DNA of 21,713 nt, from positions 1 through 21,713 of the forward strand of contig JAVRCJ020000071.1 of the NCBI GenBank assembly GCA_034530875.2. The letters are read 5' to 3'. Positions within the stretch are counted from its first letter, which is position 1. Every line of letters starts with the position of its first letter. Both the position numbers and the translations under genes were made by a program. Of this stretch, positions 133-20,918 are shown in pieces. Origin of the DNA: Nostoc sp. DedSLP01 (GTDB lineage: Bacteria > Cyanobacteriota > Cyanobacteriia > Cyanobacteriales > Nostocaceae). Below the pieces are notes generated by a model that was given only the letters and a program-made list of their open reading frames with translations, was not told the origin of the DNA and ran no database searches.

Positions 133-1638
133 TTAGACATCTGCAATTAGCCGCGCCTTTCTGAGGAAAAATTGCAGCACACTCTCTTCGCGGGAAATGA
201 TATCAACCTTACCCTCCATTCCTAATTGAATCTGACACTCATTTTTTCCTTTACCTAAAATCAGCTTTTCTGGCTCAATGGTGACTTCGTAGTAATTACC
301 AGCCCTTGGTGATTGCTGACTAACAGACGCATTACCAGTAGAACCATCGCCATCATTCCTTGGGGGAGCAATTGAATCTGGAGAAATCGTCTGGACTTTA
401 CCATTGAGAGTGCCATAATCTGGGTAAGGACAAGCACTAACCCGCATTTGGACTTTTTGCCCGATTTTTAACTTGTTCTTATCTTCGGATGCCACTGCTG
501 CTTTAATGACCTGAGCCACATCGCTAGGAACAATTTGCACTACTTGTTCGCCAGCACGCAAGGTTTGGCCTGTGTTGCGGAGATTAAGTTGAGAAATAAT
601 ACCATCAGCAGTGGCTTTAATCGTGGTTTGACTTAAATCTCTTTCTACTTGTTTGAGGTCGCTGGTATCTCGTTCTAGCTGTTTTTCCAGTTCAATTCTT
701 TGTTTAATTAGGGCTTGGCGGTCTTTTTCTAAAGTTGCTTTGTTGCTTTCGCCTGCGGCTTTTTCTTGGGCAATGCGTTCGGTAGCAACAGCGACTTCAG
801 CATCGCTGGGGTTGAGGGCAGTTTCGGCGCTTTGTCGTCTTGCGAGACTAGCGGACACTGCTTGTTGCAAACGTTCAATTGTTTGTTTTTGGGCCTCAAC
901 AGCACCTCGTTGCGCTTCTACTGATTGTTGTTGCTGTTTGGCAAGCAGTTGTGCTTCTTCTAATTGGTCTTTAGATAAAGCACCTACTTCTGCTACGGTT
1001 TGATAACGTTTTTCCTTTGATATTGCCGCACCCAAAGCTGCTTCGGCAGCAAGCAGATTTGCTTGTGCTGTTTTTAATTGTTCTTTTCCTACCTGCAATT
1101 CTCTTTGAGCAATTCTGACATTAGCATCAGCTTCTTGCAGTTCGGCAGCAGTAGTAATTTTTTTGTCTTTATATTGTCGGTAGCGACCGCTTAATTCGGC
1201 TTCGGCAGCTGTAATAGTTCGCTGAACGCGGTCGTTTTCGGCGCGAATTTGGTTGTTTAAGGCTTGAATCTGGGCATTGGTTTGCACCAGTTGTAATGTA
1301 CCTTGTTGGATACTAGCTTGGAGTTGAGTTTTTCTCGTTTGCAAGCGGGAATCATCAATGGTGGCAATAGCGTCTCCCTTTTTCACAACTTGATTTTCTT
1401 TGACATAAATCTGCATTACTTGGCCTTCGGTTATGGCTTGCACAACCCGCAATTCTCCAGCCGGACGCACAACCGCCTGTCCTTTAACTGTAACTTTATA
1501 TTTAGCGATCGCTGCCACTGGAATTCCTAAACAGAGAATGCCAATGATAATCATTCCCCCGAAGGTAGTCCAACGACCAAGCGGCGGTAAAAATTCGTTT
1601 GTTTCTATTGGGGGTATAAAATCTGTTTTGCTAACCAT
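133..1638 (-). CDS. HlyD-family membrane fusion/periplasmic adaptor protein of a type I/PCAT secretion system
   Basis: N-terminal TM segment, lipoyl-like motif (EGQVMQIYVKENQVVKKGD), long coiled coil, TIKATADGII and C-terminal YGTLNGKVQTISPD/LGMEG motifs. It lies directly downstream of the C39-ABC transporter. Confidence 0.93.
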   Translation of the reverse strand: MVSKTDFIPPIETNEFLPPLGRWTTFGGMIIIGILCLGIPVAAIAKYKVTVKGQAVVRPAGELRVVQAITEGQVMQIYVKENQVVKKGDAIATIDDSRLQTRKTQLQASIQQGTLQLVQTNAQIQALNNQIRAENDRVQRTITAAEAELSGRYRQYKDKKITTAAELQEADANVRIAQRELQVGKEQLKTAQANLLAAEAALGAAISKEKRYQTVAEVGALSKDQLEEAQLLAKQQQQSVEAQRGAVEAQKQTIERLQQAVSASLARRQSAETALNPSDAEVAVATERIAQEKAAGESNKATLEKDRQALIKQRIELEKQLERDTSDLKQVERDLSQTTIKATADGIISQLNLRNTGQTLRAGEQVVQIVPSDVAQVIKAAVASEDKNKLKIGQKVQMRVSACPYPDYGTLNGKVQTISPDSIAPPRNDGDGSTGNASVSQQSPRAGNYYEVTIEPEKLILGKGKNECQIQLGMEGKVDIISREESVLQFFLRKARLIADV

Positions 1639-1666
1639 AATTTAGTAAAGTTTTGAAAAATCCGAT

Positions 1667-3883
1667 TTAATTAATTGCAGCAGGCTTGCCGTTAACGTAA
1701 TTATTAGCTGCGATCGCTAAATCATTTTTCGCTGGAATAATATCATCTAGGTAATGTAAATGTTCGCCTTTGATTTGACGCAATTGTTCTGGCGTACCTT
1801 GAATTTGAATGCGTCCTTGGTCTAGCATGACAATCCAATCTGCTCGCTGGATGACTTTTGGACGGTGACTAATCAAAATAGTCGTCTTACCCTGGCGATA
1901 GTAAAGCAATTGCTCTAATACTTGTGCTTCGCTTACTGGGTCGAGGGCATTGGTAGATTCGTCTAAAATCAGAATCGGCGGTTGAGTAACTATTGCCCTC
2001 GCAATAGCTAACCTTTGCCGCTGTCCGCCAGAAAGATTGGCACCAAATTCTCCTAAAATAGTTTGATATTTATCGGGTAATTTGCTAATAAATTCATCTG
2101 CACCAGCAATCTGACAAGCTTGGACAATACTTTCAAAACTCATGTCAGGATAACTAAACAGAAAATTCTCGATAATTGAACGACTCCAAAAATGTGGTTC
2201 TTGAGGAACTAACACCACTTGTTGTCGCAGACATTCTAAAGACAAATCTTGTTGGTTATAAATACCATAACGAATATTACCCGACTGGCTTTTGTATAAA
2301 CCAGTAATTAATTTAGCCAAGCTACTCTTGCCGCACCCAGATTTCCCAATTACAGCTATTACTTTACTACCAGGAATAGTTAGGGAAAAATCTGACAATA
2401 GATCCACTCTACCTGCGTGGTGAAAGTTGAGCTGAGTGCAGGTAATATCTGCATCTCCAGGAATTTGCACCCAAGGCTTTTTAAAATCATTTTCATCTTC
2501 TGGAGTAGCATCAATCACTTCTGTTAAGCGTTGAATAACTATTTGAGCTGTAATGAATTCATCTATTAACCCAATGGTAGAACTCAGAAACCCCAGAAAA
2601 TTACCACTCAAGCCGTTATACGCAATTAATTGCCCGATACTTAGAGTCTGATTAATTACTAAGATGCTACCTAGCCAGAGTATCCCAATATTAATGAAAG
2701 TCGAAAGCACATCGACGACGGTGCCGCTATAAAGTTCTAATTTCATCATCCCCCAACCCAAGTTAGCAAGCCGACCGTAATTGCTTTGGTACTCTTCCCA
2801 AGCTTGGGGTGTGGCTTGGGTAGTTTTTAAGACTTGGACGCCACGAAAGGTTTCCACGAGAAAGCCTTGGTTTTCTGTACCCGAAACAATCATATTGCGG
2901 GTTTTGTGGCGCATAGCTGGCAAAAACAACAGACTCACACTCGTAATGACGATAAAAGCACTGATGGAAGCGAAAGTCAGTTGCCAACTGTAGAACAGCA
3001 TGATACCTAAGGAAACTACAGCAATAAAAAATTGGCTGGGTAACCCAAGGACAATTTGAGAAACAAGATTATTAATGGCATGAACATCAGCAATACGGCT
3101 AACAACTTCCCCACTGCGTCGGGTTTCAAAGTACGAGAGAGGCAAATGTAGGAGTTTGCGCCCATATTCTAGAATTAGCCCTAATTGGAATTTTTGAGCA
3201 AAATGACCAATTAGATGAGATTGCACTAAGCCAATCGTACTTCTAATCAGGTTCATCGCGATGACGCCAATTGCTACAGTCGCTAACAGTTGAGTGTCTC
3301 CTCGCACTAAGACATCATCTGTCAGCAGTTGCATCATAAATGGAGAAGCCAAAGCAAGGATACCGATCGCAATATTAATGGCGATCGCTTGGGCAATAAT
3401 AAAACGATAGGGATAAATTCTTTGGATATAACGCCCAATACCACCGATTTTATCTGACTCTTGGGTATAAAAGCGAGTTTCGTCAGGAAGCATCAGTAAC
3501 ATCACGCCATTGCTCCAACCCTCCATTAATTCTTTCAAATGGAGATAGCGGATGCCAATTCCAGGGTCAGCAATTACGTATTTTTTGCCTTTTTGTCCGT
3601 ATAATACTACCCAGTGATTACCTTTCCAGTGAATGATAGCTGGTAGGGATATTTTGTGCAGTTGGTCGATGAGTTGGGGAGTGGCTTTCGCTAGGCGCGC
3701 ATTAAATCCTAGTGTTTCTGCTCCCCGCTTCAAGCCTAATAAAGATGTGCCTTGGGAACCCGTACCCGATGCTTCACGGACGCGGTTGAGGGTAAAGGTG
3801 CGTCCATAGTGTTTGGCAATTGTGGCAATGCAAGCAGCACCACAATCCTCTTCATTATGTTGAAGAACAATCTGGTATTTCAT
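1667..3883 (-). CDS. Peptidase-containing ABC transporter (C39 peptidase + ABC TMD + NBD; SunT/LanT/PCAT type)
   Basis: C39 motifs QHNEEDCGAAC (catalytic Cys present), HWKGNHWVV (His) and IADP (Asp). Walker A GKSGCGKS, signature LSGGQRQR, Walker B ILILDE. The ATG at 3883 (MKYQIV) is preferred over the TTG at 3895. Confidence 0.95.
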   Translation of the reverse strand: MKYQIVLQHNEEDCGAACIATIAKHYGRTFTLNRVREASGTGSQGTSLLGLKRGAETLGFNARLAKATPQLIDQLHKISLPAIIHWKGNHWVVLYGQKGKKYVIADPGIGIRYLHLKELMEGWSNGVMLLMLPDETRFYTQESDKIGGIGRYIQRIYPYRFIIAQAIAINIAIGILALASPFMMQLLTDDVLVRGDTQLLATVAIGVIAMNLIRSTIGLVQSHLIGHFAQKFQLGLILEYGRKLLHLPLSYFETRRSGEVVSRIADVHAINNLVSQIVLGLPSQFFIAVVSLGIMLFYSWQLTFASISAFIVITSVSLLFLPAMRHKTRNMIVSGTENQGFLVETFRGVQVLKTTQATPQAWEEYQSNYGRLANLGWGMMKLELYSGTVVDVLSTFINIGILWLGSILVINQTLSIGQLIAYNGLSGNFLGFLSSTIGLIDEFITAQIVIQRLTEVIDATPEDENDFKKPWVQIPGDADITCTQLNFHHAGRVDLLSDFSLTIPGSKVIAVIGKSGCGKSSLAKLITGLYKSQSGNIRYGIYNQQDLSLECLRQQVVLVPQEPHFWSRSIIENFLFSYPDMSFESIVQACQIAGADEFISKLPDKYQTILGEFGANLSGGQRQRLAIARAIVTQPPILILDESTNALDPVSEAQVLEQLLYYRQGKTTILISHRPKVIQRADWIVMLDQGRIQIQGTPEQLRQIKGEHLHYLDDIIPAKNDLAIAANNYVNGKPAAIN

Positions 3884-3911
3884 TTTTAAGTGCAATGATT
3901 GGGGAGAAAAT

Positions 3912-3939
3912 TAAAGTCGGATCGAATGACCCGACTTTA
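3912..3939 (-). terminator. Hairpin/intrinsic terminator between precursor gene 1 and the PCAT gene
   Basis: Minus strand TAAAGTCGGGTC-ATTC-GATCCGACTTTA followed by ATTTT. The stem is fully paired on the minus strand using one G-U wobble. Confidence 0.6.
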
Positions 3940-4070
3940 TTCATATGAGCGTTTGGCTTGTCAGATCGGGCTTCGATCGCTTGGCTGACGCGCTAAAAAG
4001 TCATAGCGCTTGCTTTATCACCCATTTGCAGTATGTTTGAGAAATTCAAAACGTTGAATTTGCTTCAAAT

Positions 4071-4427
4071 TTACCTAATCCGATACAGATTTATATCGTA
4101 AGGATTGCCAGGAGTGCTGTTGTTGTATCTAAATTCATACACACCACCATTGGCCAAATTGTATTTCTTGGTTTGTACGTAGCCACTTCGACCGTCAGCA
4201 TCAAATTTAATTATTCCTCCGCTGTAGGCAGTCCATACAGCAGCACCATTGTAAGGCTTGGAGGCATATCCTGGTGATTTTGTACCATCAACATAATAAA
4301 CTACACTGTATTTCGTTTTGTTTCTAACCGTAAATACTTCGTATCCGCCAGTTAGTGTTTCGGCAGCTTGTTCGTCGAGTTCTTCGAGCAAACCTAAGCC
4401 TTCTAAGAGATTTTGATTGTTGGACAT
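4071..4427 (-). CDS. Double-glycine-leader secreted precursor 1 (28-aa leader + 90-aa basic, Tyr-rich core)
   Basis: Leader ends ELDEQAAETLTGG (L-12, L-4, GG), matching the PCAT leader consensus. Adjacent to the C39 transporter, preceded by purine-rich GAGAAG, and paralogous to 5429-5788. Confidence 0.88.
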   Translation of the reverse strand: MSNNQNLLEGLGLLEELDEQAAETLTGGYEVFTVRNKTKYSVVYYVDGTKSPGYASKPYNGAAVWTAYSGGIIKFDADGRSGYVQTKKYNLANGGVYEFRYNNSTPGNPYDINLYRIR

Positions 4428-4855
4428 AATTTTTCTTCTCGCTCTAAATTGAGTTCGTCGATTGATATTTGGTTAAAGAATAATTTTCCAAGTTAGAATT
4501 TCAAAAGTCAGAACGAGAAAGTGGTGGTTTGCGGCCTGTCACTCTCTGACAAAGCTAAGGCAGTAACTTGGCAGGGTTACCCTGCCAAAACTAGCTGCCA
4601 TTAAATCGCCAACAGGCGAGGCTTTGTATTTGTACCCACTCATAAATTTGCCGTGGTATTTTAGCGGTTTATTCATCCGTTAATCACACAGAATTCAATT
4701 GGAAGATTCTGGCGACTGACTCCTGAACTCTTTCTTGAGAAATTTTCCTTTACCTCATGTATACATTGTTGAAATACAGCAAAATTCAGAATTTGGAGGT
4801 CAAACAGCCTGCTATAGCTAGATTGTTTACTTCATCGATTTGAACTTCGCTATAT
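4428..4855 (-). ncRNA. Candidate structured 5' leader RNA of precursor 1 (unknown family)
   Basis: Hairpin 4774-4855, long-range stem 4471-4511/4716-4754, and internal hairpins 4679-4720, 4606-4619 and 4556-4603. Many + strand A-C mismatches become G-U pairs on the minus strand. The same helices form in the paralogous leader. Confidence 0.55.
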
Positions 4856-4857
4856 TT

Positions 4858-4874
4858 TGTAGTATTCCATGAAA
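4858..4874 (-). promoter_or_regulatory. Conserved putative promoter element (TGGAATACT, J-box-like -10) for precursor 1
   Basis: 17-bp block tgtagtattccatgaaa is identical at 6228-6244 while its flanks have diverged. It lies just 5' of the first leader hairpin. Confidence 0.45.
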
Positions 4875-5428
4875 CAAATTGATATTTGCTTAAAAAATAA
4901 TAAATTTTACTAGCCAAATCTACTGATATCTAACTAGAGCTATTTTTTTTCTGACAAGAAAATACTTAATAGCCTTTTCCTGTGGTTTTTTTGTAAATCA
5001 AGCAAGGCTGAGAACAAAACTCAAAACCAAAATCTCGTTATTAGCTGACGAAATCAAGATGACGATACTTGTAGGGAAAATAGCGATCGCCCCGGTAGTA
5101 CACAAGTATTAAATTAAAAACTCAAGTCGGCTCGAATAAGCTCACTTCAGGCTCGAACCTTCCGAACCCTCCTTCAAAATAAAGGAAATCAGTTCCCCAA
5201 TTCATCCGGGGGGTTGGAAGGATCTTCAGTTGCTAAATAGGGTTAAAAGTAAGCGTCTAGACCTAAATAGCGTACTTCACACTTGTTGAAATCTTTTGTG
5301 TATCAGCCTTTAGCTTGTCATATCTGACTTTTGATAGCTTAGCTGAGGCGCTACAAAGTCATAACGCTTGCCTCATACCCCATTTGCAGCCTCTTTGAGA
5401 AATTCAAAACAGTGAATCTGCTTTAAAT

Positions 5429-5788
5429 TTAGGCAACTCGATAGAGTTCTATATCATACGGATTGCCGACAGTAGTATTGTTGTATTGAAATTCATATAC
5501 TCCACCGTTGGCCAAATTGTATTTTTGGTTTATTACTACGTCGTCTCTACCGTCTTTGTCGAAGCTAATTATTCCTCCGCTGTAGGCAGTCCATACAACA
5601 GCACCGGTGTAAGGCCTTGAGCCATAGTCTGGCGATACTGTACCGTCAAGATAATATTTGACATTGTATCCCGTTCTGTTTCTAACCGTAAACACCTCAG
5701 TTTCGCCACCAGTAAGTGTTTCGGCAGCTTGTTCGTCGAGTTCTTCGAGCAAATCCAAGTCTTCTAAAAGGTTTTGATTGTTTGACAT
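5429..5788 (-). CDS. Double-glycine-leader secreted precursor 2 (28-aa leader + 91-aa acidic, Tyr-rich core)
   Basis: Leader 26/28 identical to precursor 1 and core about 64/89 identical by manual alignment. GGGAGAAG lies upstream of the ATG. Confidence 0.88.
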   Translation of the reverse strand: MSNNQNLLEDLDLLEELDEQAAETLTGGETEVFTVRNRTGYNVKYYLDGTVSPDYGSRPYTGAVVWTAYSGGIISFDKDGRDDVVINQKYNLANGGVYEFQYNNTTVGNPYDIELYRVA

Positions 5789-6221
5789 AACTTTTCTTCT
5801 CCCTTTAACAAGGTAGAGTTCATACAGAGATATTTGATTGAAGAAAAATTTCCAAGCTAGAATTCAGAATTAAAAACAAGAAAGTGGTGGTTTGCGCTCC
5901 ATTACTCTCTTACAAAGATGAGGCAATTTTTTGAAAGGTTCCCCAATTACTACTTAAAGGAACCGCCATCAAATCGCTGAAATTCGGCGCTTTAAAAAAT
6001 TTACACCAAATCTATGATTGGGTGTGATGTTTTACCTTTTATTCATGCGTCAGTCACACAGAATTAAATTAGAAAATTCTGGCGACTGACTCCTGAACTC
6101 TTTCTTGATAAATCTTGCTTCAGTTCATCGGTACATTGTTGCAATACAGCAAAATTCAAAATTGAGAAGTAAAACCCTCGAACTTTAGGTTGTATACTTT
6201 ATCAATTGAAATTTGCTGTAT
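5789..6221 (-). ncRNA. Candidate structured 5' leader RNA of precursor 2 (paralog of 4428-4855)
   Basis: Hairpin 6144-6221, long-range stem ~5835-5869/6091-6127, internal hairpins 6049-6090, 6003-6025 and ~5919-5971. Blocks 5879-5896 and 6076-6108 are identical to those in copy 1. Confidence 0.55.
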
Positions 6222-6227
6222 CTACTA

Positions 6228-6244
6228 TGTAGTATTCCATGAAA
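6228..6244 (-). promoter_or_regulatory. Conserved putative promoter element (TGGAATACT) for precursor 2
   Basis: Identical to 4858-4874 and in an equivalent position relative to the leader hairpin. Confidence 0.45.
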
Positions 6245-6921
6245 TAAATTTCTCGTATCTGAAAAGATAAGAAATTTAATAGTCAAACCATTGACATTTA
6301 AATAGATTTTTCTCTGCCGAGTAAATATTTACAGTCTTATTTATCTGTAGTTTGTACCAGTCAATCAAGGCTGAGAAAAGATTCCAGGTCAGCATTTGAT
6401 TTTTATTTAATAAAATAAAAATATAGCGATCGCCTGAGCAACAATAAAACCAACAATAATACATTATTGGAGAGAAAATTACGCCGGATCGTTCGATCCG
6501 AGTTAACTAAGAGCAAAATTGGTAAATTTCAACGCTCGAAATGAAATTAGTTTAAATGGCTGGAATATTGTTATATTCTCACTAATTTTATGACTACTAT
6601 TACTAATAAAAATTAGAGAATGGATTGCAAAGTTGCTGAAGATGACAATTTGTTAGGTTTGCTAGCTTTATTTTTAGAACTTGCTTCAGATTTGAAGATT
6701 ATATTTACAGGCTTTGAAACGAGCCATTAATAAAGCATTAGGGCTAGATATCATGGGTAAAAATTAAGCAAAATTTCAGAATAAAGAGCTTCTGAGAATA
6801 TTGGAGTCAGAATTTCCGAGAAGATGATGAATTAAGATACCAATCGTATTACAGCCTGATTTCTGGATGGTTTGGAAACAAGTCCTTGGTAAAGCTTTAC
6901 GATTCTTCATCCGTAAAAATT

Positions 6922-7042: not shown

Positions 7043-8821
7043 ATGTCTCATTTATTGTGGAAAACTCTGGTACTCAGTCCAGTAGTTTTGGGAGTGACGG
7101 TGTTGGTTTCTGCTAGAGCGATAGCTACTGAACTAGCAAGCTCTTCTGACAATGCAAATGCAAAAGGTGTTCAAGCAGAACCATCAGAAGCTATTGGTGC
7201 TTCACTATCGATGCAAACAGAGCAACCAACTACAAACGAAAGATTTTTGGTTGCCCAAACAAAGACCGATGATAGTGTTTTAGAACAAGTTAACCGCTAC
7301 AGCAGCGAAGGCAAGAAACAGAATTCACTATCTCAGGTCACATCAGTTTCTCAATTCTCTGACGTACAGCCCACTGACTGGGCATTCCAAGCTTTACAAT
7401 CCCTAGTTGAGCGTTATGGATGTATTGCAGGATACCCTAATGCTACATACCGTGGTAACCGCGCCTTGACTCGTTATGAGTTTGCCGCAGGTTTGAATGC
7501 TTGTTTGGATAGGGTGAATGAACTGATTGCCACAGCAACCGCTGACTTGGTAACGAAACAGGATTTAGCAACCCTCCAGCGTTTGCAAGAAGAATTCTCG
7601 GCGGAACTGGCAACTCTGCGCGGTCGAGTAGATGCTTTAGAAGCGCGTAGCGCTGAATTAGAAGCAAATCAGTTTTCCACTACTACAAAATTAGTGGGTG
7701 AAGCTATTTTTGCTGTTAGTGATATATTTGGCGGTAACACTGGTGATGCAAATAATACTGTCTTCCAAGACAGGGTACGTTTAGACTTGCAAAGCAGCTT
7801 CACTGGTAAAGACGTGCTACACACCCGTCTGGCAGCGGGTAATGCACTAGCCTTTTCTCAAATAGACAACGCTGGTGCTCCTATCGATACTGCTGAAGGT
7901 ACACAAACCTTTCAAATCGGTAGCAGCGGTAACAACAGCGTCAATATAGACTGGCTGGCGTATTACGTACCTATCGGCCCCGCGCAAGTTTACATTGCAG
8001 CCACTGGAGGTATTCACAGCGATTATGCCGCCACCAATAACCCTTACTTTGAGGACTATGACGGTGGTAATGGTGCCTTATCTAGCTTTGCTTCTGAAAG
8101 CCCCATCTATCGCATCGGTGGTGGCGCAGGTGTGGCACTAACTTTACCCTTTGGTAAGGGTGGCAGCATTTTCAGACCAAGTTCGCTGACTGTAGGCTAC
8201 TTGGCATCAAATGCTAGTAATCCTGCACTAAACCAAGGTTTGTTCGAGGGTAACTATGCGGCTCTGGGACAATTAAACTTTAGTATTGGCGATAGCTTGG
8301 CGATCGCTGCTACTTACGTTCACGGGTATCATGGTGCTGGAGGCGGTAATTTATTCGATCTAGGCGGTGGTTTGGGTAGCACTAACCGCGTCGTAGGTAC
8401 TGCTCAAGCTAACACCCTAAATGCCCTAGCTGGTTCTTCTAGTAATTCCTATGGTGTAGAAGCAGCCTTCAGATTCAGTGACAAACTGTCAATTAGTGGC
8501 TTCGTTTCTTACCACGATATTACAGGCTTCGGTGCAGGTGATGATTATGAAGCTTGGAGTTACGGTCTTGGACTAGCTTTACCTGACTTCGGTAAAAAAG
8601 GTAACGTATTGGGCATTTTTGCTGGTGCAGAACCTTATGCTCGTAACCGAGCAGGCTTTGTTGGTAACGATATACCTTATCACTTTGAAGGCTTCTATAA
8701 ATATCGCGTGTCAGATAATATCTCAATCACCCCTGGCGTGATTTGGTTGACTTCTCCTGGCCAAAACAGCGATAACGATGATGCAATTATCGGTACCCTG
8801 AGAACAACTTTCACGTTCTAA
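7043..8821 (+). CDS. Cyanobacterial outer-membrane porin with SLH domain (SomA/OprB, 'iron uptake porin' family)
   Basis: Signal peptide, SQVTSVSQFSDVQPTDWAFQALQSLVERYGCIAGYP SLH motif, coiled coil, FSTTTKLVGE, and a beta-barrel ending GTLRTTFTF (terminal Phe). Confidence 0.95.
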   Translation: MSHLLWKTLVLSPVVLGVTVLVSARAIATELASSSDNANAKGVQAEPSEAIGASLSMQTEQPTTNERFLVAQTKTDDSVLEQVNRYSSEGKKQNSLSQVTSVSQFSDVQPTDWAFQALQSLVERYGCIAGYPNATYRGNRALTRYEFAAGLNACLDRVNELIATATADLVTKQDLATLQRLQEEFSAELATLRGRVDALEARSAELEANQFSTTTKLVGEAIFAVSDIFGGNTGDANNTVFQDRVRLDLQSSFTGKDVLHTRLAAGNALAFSQIDNAGAPIDTAEGTQTFQIGSSGNNSVNIDWLAYYVPIGPAQVYIAATGGIHSDYAATNNPYFEDYDGGNGALSSFASESPIYRIGGGAGVALTLPFGKGGSIFRPSSLTVGYLASNASNPALNQGLFEGNYAALGQLNFSIGDSLAIAATYVHGYHGAGGGNLFDLGGGLGSTNRVVGTAQANTLNALAGSSSNSYGVEAAFRFSDKLSISGFVSYHDITGFGAGDDYEAWSYGLGLALPDFGKKGNVLGIFAGAEPYARNRAGFVGNDIPYHFEGFYKYRVSDNISITPGVIWLTSPGQNSDNDDAIIGTLRTTFTF

Positions 8822-17840: not shown

Positions 17841-20800
17841 CTAATAATTTAGCGATTTTATATTTGGGAGTTGTCTGGTAGAGAAATTTTTATCAAATTT
17901 GGGTAAGTACTGTCTCATCAGTTCCTTGTCAATCTTTGGACATAATATACCAGAACCTTGTATCGCATTAAGAGTATTATCTACTTGGCATATAGGAGTA
18001 CGATGGTGTACTTCTAGTATGGTGCTGCGGTCTTGATATACTTTCTCTTGGAAGAAAGAAATCAATGGATACAAGGGATTGTTGGTTGGCAAAGTAGAGA
18101 GAGCATTCAACCAGTTTTTAGGTGAAATTTTTTGTAAGGGATAGCCCAACTCTTTGAAGAACTCAAATATTTCTACATTACTTAATTCCTGCTCTCTAGG
18201 CACAACAATGTTGTAATTGCCACCTATATATTTTGCGTCTGAGGAAATATGAGCGATGACGGCGGCAACATAGTCCACAGGTATAGGATCCCAATATTTT
18301 TCGGGCCAGTCTGGATACATACCCATCTCTATACAACCGCCTATAAACCGATAAAAGGTGTCGTTAAGGTTGGCAGCTCCAGTTTGTCTGTGTCCAGAAA
18401 TAAAACCAGGACGGTAAATAGAGACTGCCAATCCTTTTTCTTTTGCTGACCTCACCATACGTTCGGCAGCCCATTTTGCCTGTACATAGGCGAACTCTAC
18501 AGACATAATTGGGAAGGTCAAATCAATATCAAAATCTTCAGGAACTTTATCAATACCTAACAATGAAGTTACTGCTCCATAAACAGACGCAGTAGATATG
18601 TAATGCATTATTTTGTGACGGCGGTGTGCTGCTAAGACCAGAAGATTCGCAGTTCCATATACATTGGATTTTTTAATTAGGGAATAAGGTTTGATGTAAC
18701 TAGTGTCAGCAGCTACATGATAGATTTGGTCAACTTCCTCACCCAGTTTGTCAAATAATGGTGCTGGTAGTTGCAGTTGTGGTTGTTCGATGTCGCCAGC
18801 GATGACATCTACTTGGGCTAGTTTTGCTGTTGGTAGCTGATATTGAGTAAAGGTTGCACGCAGCCTTGCTTGTGCTGTTATCTCGTTTTCGGCTCGTATC
18901 AAGCAATAAATTTTCCGATAGGTGCTTTTTACGAGCAGTTCATAAAGCAAGTGTGCGCCTAGAAAACCTGTCGTACCTGTAATTAATGCACAGTCAGACT
19001 TAACTTGTGGTGGTTGTTGCCAAATCGATGTATTTATATCTGGAGAAAGTTGTGCTTCTGCTTGCAAGTCAATATGTTTATCATTAGCTGCACTTTCGCT
19101 TTTGAGTTTAAACTGCTCTAATAATCTTGCTAAACTCGATGGTGTAGGATATTCATAAATTAAGCGAGAAGGAAGAGTTACGCCAAAATCGCGATCGAGC
19201 GCATATAAAACATGAGCAATGCACAGCGAACTCCCACCCATCTCAAAGAAATTAGTGTGAGGCTTGCAAGTGCCGGTAGGTAATTCTAAAGCTTCATCAA
19301 AAACTACCGCAATCATCAAAGAGTTATCCATTGTATCAGTCACGAAAGATGGTGTTTGGGGCAGTTCTGGTAAAGCATTCCGGTCTACTTTGCTGCGATT
19401 AGGTAACAAAGGCAATTCATCCATGAAAACAAAACGCCCAGGCACCATATAATCTGGTAGTTGTTCGGCGGCAAAGCGTTGCAGGTGCTTTTCTGTCAAA
19501 AACTGTCCGGCTTTAGGAACGATATATGCGACAAGCATCGATACGCCATAATTTTCTGGCACATCGCTACTTTCTATTCGTGGAGTTCTAATTGCTTTGA
19601 CTGCGTTCGTCTGTACTCCAGGATGCTGGGCAAGTATCATTTCAATTGCTTCTATTTCTATACGCTTGCCGCGAATTTTGACTTGGCGATCGCATCTACC
19701 GGCATAGTGTAACAGCCCCGGTTGATGCGGATCTTCGTAAACGATATCGCCAGTTTTGTAGATTTTGCCCGCACCAAAAGGGTTGTCTAGAAAGCGAGTA
19801 CTTGTAATCTCAGGTTTATCTAGATAGCCTTTAGCTACCCCAATACCACCTACATATAACTCGCCCTTTTCACCACGATTACAAAGTTGAAGTTCTTCAT
19901 CAAGAATGTAGAGTTCTACATTTGGCAGCGCATAACCAATAGGCAGAGTTGTATCCTGTTGTTTAAACTCGTAAATTGTGCAGCAAACTGTTATTTCTGT
20001 TGGCCCGTAGGCATTGAAAAACCGGGTATGGGCTGAAACCCATGCTTTGGCAAGCGATACGGGGCAAGCTTCACCACCTACGACTACCATTTGCAGATCG
20101 GGTAATAGGTGGGAAAAAGGTGTCAATGTTGCGAGTACAGAAGGGGGTAACATCACCCATTGCACTCTTTGTCTAGCGATGAAATTTGCCAACAGTTGCC
20201 CAGGAAGCATTTTCTCTCTTGCACCCAGTACTAAAGTTGCCCCACCACATAATGCTGTAAATATTTCCCACACTGCTGCATCAAAACTGATGGAGGCAAA
20301 CTGAAGTAAACGCAAGCCTGGTTTGATATTAAAAGTGTTACAGCTAGTTTGAGCAAGATTTAGTAAACCTTGATGGGTAAGCATTACACCCTTCGGTACA
20401 CCTGTAGAGCCAGAGGTATAAATAATATAAGCTAGTTGTTCAGGCTCTACTACTGAAGGTAATGCAGAGGATGTAGTTAACGATTCCCAAACAGTAGGGG
20501 TGTCCAAAAAACACATCTGCCCATCCACACCACTCTGCCGCATCGCTGGCTCGATATCAAAAGCAAACTTCTGCTGTGTCAGAATTGTGGTTAATTTAGC
20601 ATCAGCAATCATGTAACTAAGTCGCTGGCGGGGTAAATCTGGATCGAGGGGAACAAAAGCTGCGCCTGCTTTCAAAATGGCATAGATAGCAATAACCATT
20701 TCAAAAGAAGGTTCTATACATAGTCCAACTAAACTATCAGATTTTAGCCAACCTTGTGCTGTTAAGTACTGAGATAACTGTTCTGCGCGCTGCTGTAATT

Positions 20801-20918
20801 GAGCGTAAGAAAACTGTTGAGATTCTATAATTACTGCCAGATGGTCATGATATTTTTGACAAATAAAGTCGATTAAAGAAACAACTGTTGGATGGTTTTG
20901 TGAATTCTGAGTATTCAT
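17841..20918 (-). CDS. Stand-alone NRPS-like adenylation-thiolation-reductase (A-T-R) enzyme
   Basis: A-domain motifs YIIYTSGSTGVPKG, FDAAVWEI, NAYGPTE, YKTGD and QVKIRG. PCP FFEMGGSSL. Thioester reductase ITGTTGFLG and YVQAK (YxxxK). No condensation domain. Confidence 0.93.
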   Translation of the reverse strand: MNTQNSQNHPTVVSLIDFICQKYHDHLAVIIESQQFSYAQLQQRAEQLSQYLTAQGWLKSDSLVGLCIEPSFEMVIAIYAILKAGAAFVPLDPDLPRQRLSYMIADAKLTTILTQQKFAFDIEPAMRQSGVDGQMCFLDTPTVWESLTTSSALPSVVEPEQLAYIIYTSGSTGVPKGVMLTHQGLLNLAQTSCNTFNIKPGLRLLQFASISFDAAVWEIFTALCGGATLVLGAREKMLPGQLLANFIARQRVQWVMLPPSVLATLTPFSHLLPDLQMVVVGGEACPVSLAKAWVSAHTRFFNAYGPTEITVCCTIYEFKQQDTTLPIGYALPNVELYILDEELQLCNRGEKGELYVGGIGVAKGYLDKPEITSTRFLDNPFGAGKIYKTGDIVYEDPHQPGLLHYAGRCDRQVKIRGKRIEIEAIEMILAQHPGVQTNAVKAIRTPRIESSDVPENYGVSMLVAYIVPKAGQFLTEKHLQRFAAEQLPDYMVPGRFVFMDELPLLPNRSKVDRNALPELPQTPSFVTDTMDNSLMIAVVFDEALELPTGTCKPHTNFFEMGGSSLCIAHVLYALDRDFGVTLPSRLIYEYPTPSSLARLLEQFKLKSESAANDKHIDLQAEAQLSPDINTSIWQQPPQVKSDCALITGTTGFLGAHLLYELLVKSTYRKIYCLIRAENEITAQARLRATFTQYQLPTAKLAQVDVIAGDIEQPQLQLPAPLFDKLGEEVDQIYHVAADTSYIKPYSLIKKSNVYGTANLLVLAAHRRHKIMHYISTASVYGAVTSLLGIDKVPEDFDIDLTFPIMSVEFAYVQAKWAAERMVRSAKEKGLAVSIYRPGFISGHRQTGAANLNDTFYRFIGGCIEMGMYPDWPEKYWDPIPVDYVAAVIAHISSDAKYIGGNYNIVVPREQELSNVEIFEFFKELGYPLQKISPKNWLNALSTLPTNNPLYPLISFFQEKVYQDRSTILEVHHRTPICQVDNTLNAIQGSGILCPKIDKELMRQYLPKFDKNFSTRQLPNIKSLNY

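Follow-up and report, generated by a model that had tools for sequence, protein, structure and literature searches.

The window analysed here, the whole of the 21,713-nt contig JAVRCJ020000071.1 (C71) in the 8.57-Mb genome of Nostoc sp. DedSLP01, whose nearest named relatives are Nostoc, harbours a peptidase-containing ATP-binding cassette transporter (PCAT) and an adaptor of the HlyD family next to two paralogous precursor proteins carrying double-glycine (GG) leaders. The cores following these leaders define a family of small proteins, for which the predicted structure is a β-sandwich that is transthyretin-like by class. Comparison of related loci suggests that the window locus is an example of a modular system, in which one type of leader has been placed on several unrelated extracellular domains. 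By analogy to characterized PCATs, the transporter would very probably cut its substrates behind the GG motif and pass the core in unfolded form through HlyD and TolC to the outside, where it would fold. For the role of the exported cores we tentatively favour, as a proposal that falls somewhat short of even chances, that they are non-enzymatic extracellular binders with a variable loop face engaged in surface recognition or adhesion.

Exporter and precursors of the window

The genes of the system are located on the minus strand in the order precursor 2 (5429-5788), precursor 1 (4071-4427), PCAT (1667-3895) and HlyD (133-1638), the last of which ends 132 nt from the end of the contig, with any genes further downstream lying outside of it. 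The PCAT is of the short type and comprises 742 aa if counted from a TTG codon; the ATG at 3883 probably represents the true start, as homologues begin with MKY. Pfam assigns a Peptidase_C39 domain (E 1.6e-36) followed by ABC_membrane and ABC_tran domains, and the protein contains the C39 motifs QHNEEDC (Cys18), HWKGNH (His94) and IADP (Asp110) as well as all motifs of the ATPase (Walker A, Q-loop, LSGGQ, Walker B and H-switch), whose respective roles are well established. The adaptor of 501 aa matches HlyD_3 (E 4.5e-19) and TIGR01843 (E 2.4e-45, under the cut-off of that model), and genes of TolC-type channels, detected as OEP matches, are found elsewhere in the genome on contigs C15, C27 and C11. 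Open reading frames (ORFs), domains and catalytic residues thus confirm the preliminary description of the locus, made from the sequence alone, which had placed an intact C39 transporter and HlyD beside two GG-leader paralogs.

Precursor 1 (118 aa) consists of a 28-aa leader (4344-4427) and a core of 90 aa (4074-4343), which starts with YEVF and has an isoelectric point (pI) of 9.5, whereas precursor 2 (119 aa) combines a 28-aa leader (5705-5788) with a 91-aa core (5432-5704) that starts with ETEVF, has a pI of 4.7 and is 71% identical to core 1. The two cores contain 13 and 11 Tyr, respectively, and neither Cys, His nor Met, and a recount agreed with the lengths and composition initially given. 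Their grand average of hydropathy (GRAVY) amounts to -0.68 and -0.54, and a hydrophobic pore-forming segment is absent. Both leaders end in ELDEQAAETLTGG. They contain L(-12), L(-4) and GG, and where the consensus L(-12)xxxE(-8)L(-7)xxxxGG described in PMC6959990 has Glu and Leu, positions -8 and -7 are both Ala. The GG columns are almost invariant across the alignment of the family.

The two precursor genes arose by a tandem duplication that included about 600 nt of upstream DNA. This duplication extends from 3944 to 6377, with units at approximately 3944-5014 and 5301-6377, a period of about 1360-1370 nt and 75.6% identity over 1098 columns. A 12-bp hairpin at 3912-3939 on the minus strand, which may act like a terminator or in transcript processing, separates precursor 1 from the PCAT and would favour the output of cargo over that of the transporter; a second, related hairpin is found at 6484-6501.

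Fold, distribution and selection of the core family

Neither precursors nor cores matched any family of Pfam or NCBIfam at an E-value of 0.1, and a sequence search of the PDB was without meaningful match, in line with the preliminary description, which had not recognised the family. The prediction of the full precursor by AlphaFold combines a leader of low confidence with a confident core. In the model of the core alone (predicted local distance difference test (pLDDT) 93.9, predicted template modelling score 0.84), strands span residues 2 to 88 of 90, and the cut after GG would therefore release exactly one domain. A Foldseek search of the model returned nothing at E 0.001, the best hits being at E 6.5e-3 or weaker, with AlgF, the extracellular domain of PepT1, the lumenal domain of HGSNAT, CBM25, CnaB2 and transthyretin in the top rows. 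In a wide structural search (VIA), for which the leader was left attached to the query model, the PepT1 extracellular domain ranked best (Z 7.8, root mean square deviation 2.9, 87 aligned residues), followed by PepT2, AlgF, the membrane-binding domains of cytolysins (Z 5.4-5.7), TssJ of the type VI secretion system and the SPH protein (Z 5.6); CBM25/41 were also among the nearest solved folds. Structural neighbours in the Atlas are firstly cyanobacterial clusters without a name, followed by that part of a CAP cluster which lies outside the CAP domain and by DUF4397 and DUF2846 (the latter two with template modelling scores of 0.57-0.64). The core thus appears similar in fold class to the transthyretin-like sandwiches of AlgF/DUF4397, DUF2846, PepT1/2, TssJ and SPH (VIA Z 5.6-7.8), while differing from them in sequence, with 6-15% identity and no profile match, and we know of none of these proteins as PCAT cargo. 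The assignment is to a class, and the fold names neither a family nor a function. The AlphaFold and Foldseek analyses that had been suggested at the outset thus gave a confident sandwich and no characterized family, and, together with the lack of a maturase described below, this model favours the earlier view of the cores as small folded β-proteins that are not classical RiPPs (peptides made by the ribosome and modified after translation). A Ca2+-binding DxDxDG loop was considered in the core and rejected, as its fifth position is an invariant Arg.

A word-based search identified 44 family proteins among 46 candidates, including the two of the window, and those that carry a name are annotated as 'hypothetical'. 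A profile built from 42 sequences retrieved, at E 0.001 and among 1.84 billion representatives, 53 clusters (at 50% identity), most of them 104-133 aa long with a GG leader and some being fragments or matches to the leader only. A core profile that includes distant members matched 58 of 127 genomes of the genus, and profile A2 had matches in 18 of 401 genomes from the order. Among the carriers with a name are Nostoc, Calothrix, Scytonematopsis, Cylindrospermum, Stigonema and Xenococcus. Four weak matches at the level of the phylum (E 0.003-0.009) were disregarded, two of which looked spurious upon inspection, and a search of the PLSDB plasmids with the precursor gave no match. The 97 unique cores have a median length of 87 aa, with a pI below 5 in 64% and above 8.5 in 20% of them. 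Their median Tyr content is 9.8%, and Cys is present in 8 and His in 27 of the 97, so that the description of the cores as Tyr-rich and devoid of Cys and His holds for the window and does not extend to the family.

In 52 of 57 loci, a PCAT is found close downstream of the GG genes, at a median gap of 173 nt. In a tree with midpoint root, obtained by a quick IQ-TREE search of a sample that is biased towards the core family, 49 of 51 PCATs form one group (SH-aLRT 100). Outside of it are the PCAT of the PCC 7120 alpha plasmid, which is located beside microviridin genes and is 62% identical to the window PCAT, and a transporter of this genome preceded by Gly-rich precursors. The latter belongs to a locus on C38 (26115-28901, L112) with five GG-type precursors, four of them Gly-rich and repetitive, that are better candidates for a matrix of the EbfG kind than the genes of the window. 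One distant family member that carries a GG leader is an orphan (C12:76481-76867; L070:1462-1848), having no adjoining PCAT within 3.2 kb, and would be exported in trans. Fragments of C39 domains of 55 aa are interspersed among the precursors in L092 and L093. In these loci and in L094, L011, L031 and L032, arrays appear to grow by duplication of a precursor together with the PCAT gene's 5' end, and short remnants of C39 are left behind among the genes for cargo.

Pairwise dN/dS ratios decrease from 0.55-0.60 in cores to 0.30-0.39 in leaders and 0.18 in PCATs. In site models implemented in custom code for 34 cores (86 codons), the likelihood ratio test (LRT) between M2a and M1a gave 53.0, with 12% of sites at an omega of 2.5, and that between M8 and M8a 36.1, compared to an LRT of 0 in the control set, which consisted of 22 C39 domains encoded at these same loci. 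Each half is significant on its own tree (LRT 15.4 and 36.1), removal of a gappy loop gave 66.7, three subsets 25.4, 17.3 and 12.5, and eight null simulations with a true p0 of 0.5 did not exceed 4.0. The selected sites are K39, Y45, S81, N103, S104 and P106 (posterior at least 0.97) in addition to A55 and Q85, and seven of the eight are non-strand residues. Given a transthyretin-like topology, we infer that they would gather at one pole of the domain, beside the invariant residues N36, D76, D78, R80, N108 and D111.

Alternative cargo, neighbouring genes and upstream DNA

The domain found in the cores is not confined to GG precursors. It follows a CAP domain at the C-terminus of P0087 (E 2.2e-8) and succeeds a Sec-type signal, as judged by eye, in P0091, L053, L055, L056, L058 and L089-L091. 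In P0069 (E 3.5e-20), it starts with the same YEVFT behind an acidic HExxH-like region; this region, with its LLEEMGH motif, occupies residues 20-112 directly before the domain and is possibly another export or carrier module. Since the same domain ends proteins with Sec signals and CAP domains, the core would be an extracellular module that has acquired a GG tag. The C-terminal region of P0087, when used as query, found itself only.

Conversely, the same leader precedes other domains, a modularity that the preliminary description had missed. Twenty unique GG cargoes from outside the family were found in the fetched loci, comprising ten C2-like proteins, one crystallin, one META domain, one other β-rich protein, six short low-complexity peptides and one fragment. 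The profile of the ten C2-like sequences, with five invariant Asp, matches C2 proteins in the PDB (best E 4e-4); members of this C2-like family, which has no Pfam match, are encoded at L012:8897-9214, L029:8860-12185, L032:10535-12097, L048:786-1064 and L115:3967-4440. Genes of C2-like or crystallin cargo are mixed with those of the core family in the arrays of L012, L017, L019, L023, L029, L032, L047 and L048, and both βγ-crystallin and C2-like cargoes precede the same PCAT clade as the core family. That clade is also found on named plasmids, with C2-like, crystallin-like and another β cargo. Three further loci of the PCAT group in this genome carry crystallin/I36 cargo (L109-L111, at C85:4032-5004, C62:9229-11170 and C60:22000-22347), with six GG-leader genes for βγ-crystallin-like cores and close PCAT paralogs behind, the one on C60 being truncated. 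Four of the six were scanned with Pfam, which confirmed three of them and gave no match for the fourth. The META domain (E 5.8e-17) follows a GG leader at L065:1174-1503 (L113), on a 5.9-kb contig with ABC efflux-type genes and no PCAT, and the same leader is also found on a His-rich peptide (L026:9011-9226) and a peptide of Pro/Cys repeats (L027:8829-9110), which are possible metal-binding cargo.

A conserved modification enzyme or immunity gene was not detected around the precursors of the core family in the loci scanned. No match to LanM, YcaO or radical SAM proteins was obtained among eight window proteins scanned, and none to LanM/LanC, YcaO or ATP-grasp in Pfam at E 1e-12 among 93 representatives of neighbour clusters from 57 loci (ORFs of at least 220 aa, of which the first 520 aa were scanned); the single radical SAM protein among the neighbours resides in the PCAT-less locus L025. 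The window contains no convincing immunity gene, and no conserved immunity-like or membrane ORF is present among the 125 ORFs that separate the precursors from the PCAT in 52 loci. Both absences had been noted for the window in the preliminary description and now extend to related loci in this scope. The recurring intervening ORFs are remnants of a 399-aa neighbour and of PCATs, in addition to a signal-peptide-like protein of 184 aa that belongs to no Pfam family and is located between precursors and PCAT in five loci (L008:3737-4291, L015, L019, L028 and L032). The 399-aa protein, which is unnamed and which we take to be sigma-factor-like, is also the most recurrent neighbour (24 of 57 loci), followed by DUF1822 (23), CHAT-CHASE2 (18), TPS-domain exoproteins (16), DUF928 (16) and OprB porins (8).

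In the window, an SLH-OprB porin is encoded at 7043-8821 (plus strand), divergent from the precursors. Other ORFs of 148-230 aa presumably encode urease accessory proteins, and a stand-alone enzyme of 1025 aa with adenylation, thiolation and reductase domains, resembling a nonribosomal peptide synthetase, at 17841-20918 (minus strand) has no apparent link to the system. In the DNA upstream of the precursors, a conserved motif caTGGAATACT is found at 4860-4868 and 6231-6239 (minus-strand sense) and also in 15 related loci. This motif is not the J-Box promoter of SigJ, which was considered, as TGGAATACT occurs upstream of both window genes and in 15 of 43 related regions, and rejected, as the required GGG trio is missing (PMC6495340). 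Rfam gave no match to a structured RNA in the upstream regions, whose alignment is patchy, and a scan for sigma-70 promoters was close to chance expectation (22 compared to 16.0 ± 4.2).

Role of the cores and relation to known systems

In the proposed mechanism, the intact PCAT and HlyD would cut the two tagged precursors and export proteins of about 10 kDa. As in other PCATs, the C39 domain would bind and cleave the leader, and the cargo would travel unfolded through a conduit of PCAT, HlyD and TolC before assuming its structure outside. Work on PCAT1 indicates that the leader determines specificity and that the cargo lacks structure during transit (PMC6959990), which makes the swapping of cargo plausible. 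Once folded, the conserved scaffold may display hypervariable loops for binding to a partner that itself changes. This would most likely be a protein or glycan of the sheath, of adjacent filaments or of the surface of a host or partner cell. We favour a binder because of the absence of a catalytic set of residues, the origin of the domain as an accessory module, the adhesin-rich neighbourhoods and the lack of an immunity gene. EbfG4 (PMC9981879) and MAM (PMC12184118) are precedents of a PCAT cargo residing at the cell surface. Still broader, and in our view rather doubtful, is the idea that one cyanobacterial PCAT clade is a general system for the secretion of miniproteins, where transthyretin-like, C2, βγ-crystallin and META domains were captured behind a GG leader, amplified into arrays and diversified by positive selection to yield nanobody-like binders, specific to the strain, with which Nostoc recognises or fights its partners among fungi, plants or microbes.

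Several observations weigh against an assignment as recruited extracellular binders. When longer proteins were sought with alignment A2, none was found at E 0.001 among 7999 candidates, and fused forms are therefore few or remote. A downstream PCAT is missing in 5 of 57 loci, the cargo genes of META and L054 are without a PCAT inside the 5-6 kb read, and the leader carries Ala at positions -7 and -8, where the consensus has Leu and Glu (PMC6959990). The best Z of 7.8 is below the bar of 8 set by the tool and the Foldseek E-values are above 0.001, thus indicating a fold class and not a function. The clustering of seven of eight selected sites at one pole, in a topology inferred from DSSP without coordinates, has a p of 0.004 if compared to all residues and of 0.14 if compared to loop residues only. 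The selection test itself relies on custom code and mixes paralogs, and the dS of cores (0.42-0.48) compared to that of leaders (0.17) suggests exchange, with gene conversion potentially inflating the signal.

Diversifying selection would suit toxins, which beside lectins or adhesins were among the options of the preliminary description, and inhibitors equally well, and antagonistic effectors directed against fungi, grazers or distant bacteria, for which an immunity gene would be unneeded, would account for the positive selection at surface sites and for the absence of immunity genes alike. The co-cargo points in the same direction, since crystallin and Inhibitor_I36 matches belong to a fold with antagonistic relatives such as SMPI, AFP1 and killer-toxin-like proteins, and since the C2-like proteins carry the set of Asp that in C2 domains serves Ca2+-dependent membrane binding. 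Also the membrane-binding domains of cholesterol-dependent cytolysins among the fold matches (Z 5.4-5.7), the many carriers titled lichen-associated Nostoc and the patchy spread over 58 of 127 genomes of the genus are consistent with such a role. We nevertheless regard it as unlikely, since a conserved catalytic residue set, invariant Cys or His and a pore-forming segment are all absent, the cytolysin matches are generic, the domain elsewhere is an accessory C-terminal module and free-living genera (Xenococcus, Calothrix, Stigonema and Cylindrospermum) carry the family too. Less probable still are structural proteins of sheath or biofilm that assemble into amyloid or a lattice, comparable to EbfG1-3 of Synechococcus elongatus or to MAM of Faecalibacterium. 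The order of genes is the same as in ebfG-pteB-hlyD (PMC4997328, PMC12267927), the cores are β-rich, the two of the window have complementary charges, and their genes were amplified in tandem including their own upstream DNA. However, the predicted compact globular sandwich (pLDDT 94) with its conserved buried residues, and site-specific omega values above 1, which are not expected in a self-polymer, do not support as leading idea the matrix or amyloid of the EbfG1-3 kind, which was one of the options in the preliminary description. Moreover, the transporter preceded by Gly-rich precursors in this genome lies outside the clade of 49, and EbfG cores are described as proteins of 6-7 kDa without homologs or domains (PMC4997328).

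Diffusible strain-specific signals or ligands of kin recognition for a cyanobacterial sensor such as CHASE2, similar to the SPH/PrsS ligands of plants, would agree with the variable surface, the SPH fold match (Z 5.6) and the presence of CHAT-CHASE2 genes in the vicinity of 18 of the 57 loci; with that match being generic and the CHASE2 cluster absent from 39 of 57 loci and from the window, this role appears improbable. Finally, the combination of GG leader, PCAT and HlyD is the export architecture of microcins, and 10 kDa corresponds to the upper range of class II (PMC12219008). A class II microcin of the classical kind, or a RiPP whose modifying enzyme is encoded at another site, is nevertheless highly improbable in light of Cys-free cores that are predicted to fold as hydrophilic sandwich, with neither an adjoining conserved membrane immunity ORF nor a maturase.

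If the cores act as binders, a large branch of the cyanobacterial GG-leader clusters, which are routinely filed as bacteriocins or RiPPs, likely secretes small folded binding domains, and hundreds of clusters would have to be reread. The cores of the window would become candidates for recognition molecules on the side of Nostoc in symbiosis or antagonism, of which few are known to us. The positively selected residues offer direct targets for mutagenesis, and the combination of a cargo-tolerant one-step secretion route with a Cys-free scaffold of 10 kDa may be useful in cyanobacterial engineering. In the mostly open-access literature on folded GG cargo in cyanobacteria and on Nostoc exoproteomes, we found no account of the core family or of crystallin, C2 or META domains as GG cargo; a term search of the main text of PMC11424642 retrieved neither bacteriocin nor crystallin. 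While the cargo family and the pattern of domain recruitment were thus not found in the literature searched, the architecture is already known from the group III 'bacteriocin' clusters of Wang 2011 (PMC3140520).

As described there, these clusters share with the window a short-type C39 PCAT with HlyD, GG precursors that occur in arrays (29-129 aa) and the absence of LanM. The window fits this group in containing a short-type PCAT and HlyD without LanM, second ABC transporter or CAP_ED extension, with the downstream side judged from related loci. Wang 2011 took the cores as diverse peptides destined for modification and lists locus tags without sequences in Table S3 (PMC3140520), whereas the window cores are a conserved family predicted to form one folded domain. 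In Synechococcus elongatus PCC 7942, the precursors EbfG1-4 are similarly encoded directly upstream of a C39 PCAT (PteB) and HlyD (PMC4997328, PMC9981879), and as in that system (PMC9981879) the window cores possibly serve a non-antibiotic role at the surface or in the matrix. The EbfG cores are smaller (6-7 kDa), with EbfG1-3 forming amyloid, in contrast to the widespread and diversifying 10-kDa family of predicted globular proteins, a comparison that for PteB relies on its description (PMC4997328, PMC9981879). MAM of Faecalibacterium duncaniae, also compared by description, resembles the window cores as a strain-variable, PCAT-linked cargo with GG leader on the cell envelope, and differs in its Gram-positive host and predicted hexameric lattice (PMC12184118, PMC8836110). 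Class II microcins have in common a GG leader, export by PCAT, adaptor and TolC and a size of 5-10 kDa, but are described with verified immunity genes that are adjacent and membrane-bound (PMC12219008), which are not found adjoining in the window, where the cores are predicted as hydrophilic folded sandwich. In the neighbourhoods scanned, the system of the window thus lacks the maturase of RiPPs and the immunity gene of microcins, and it would work like the exporters of Wang group III, EbfG and MAM.

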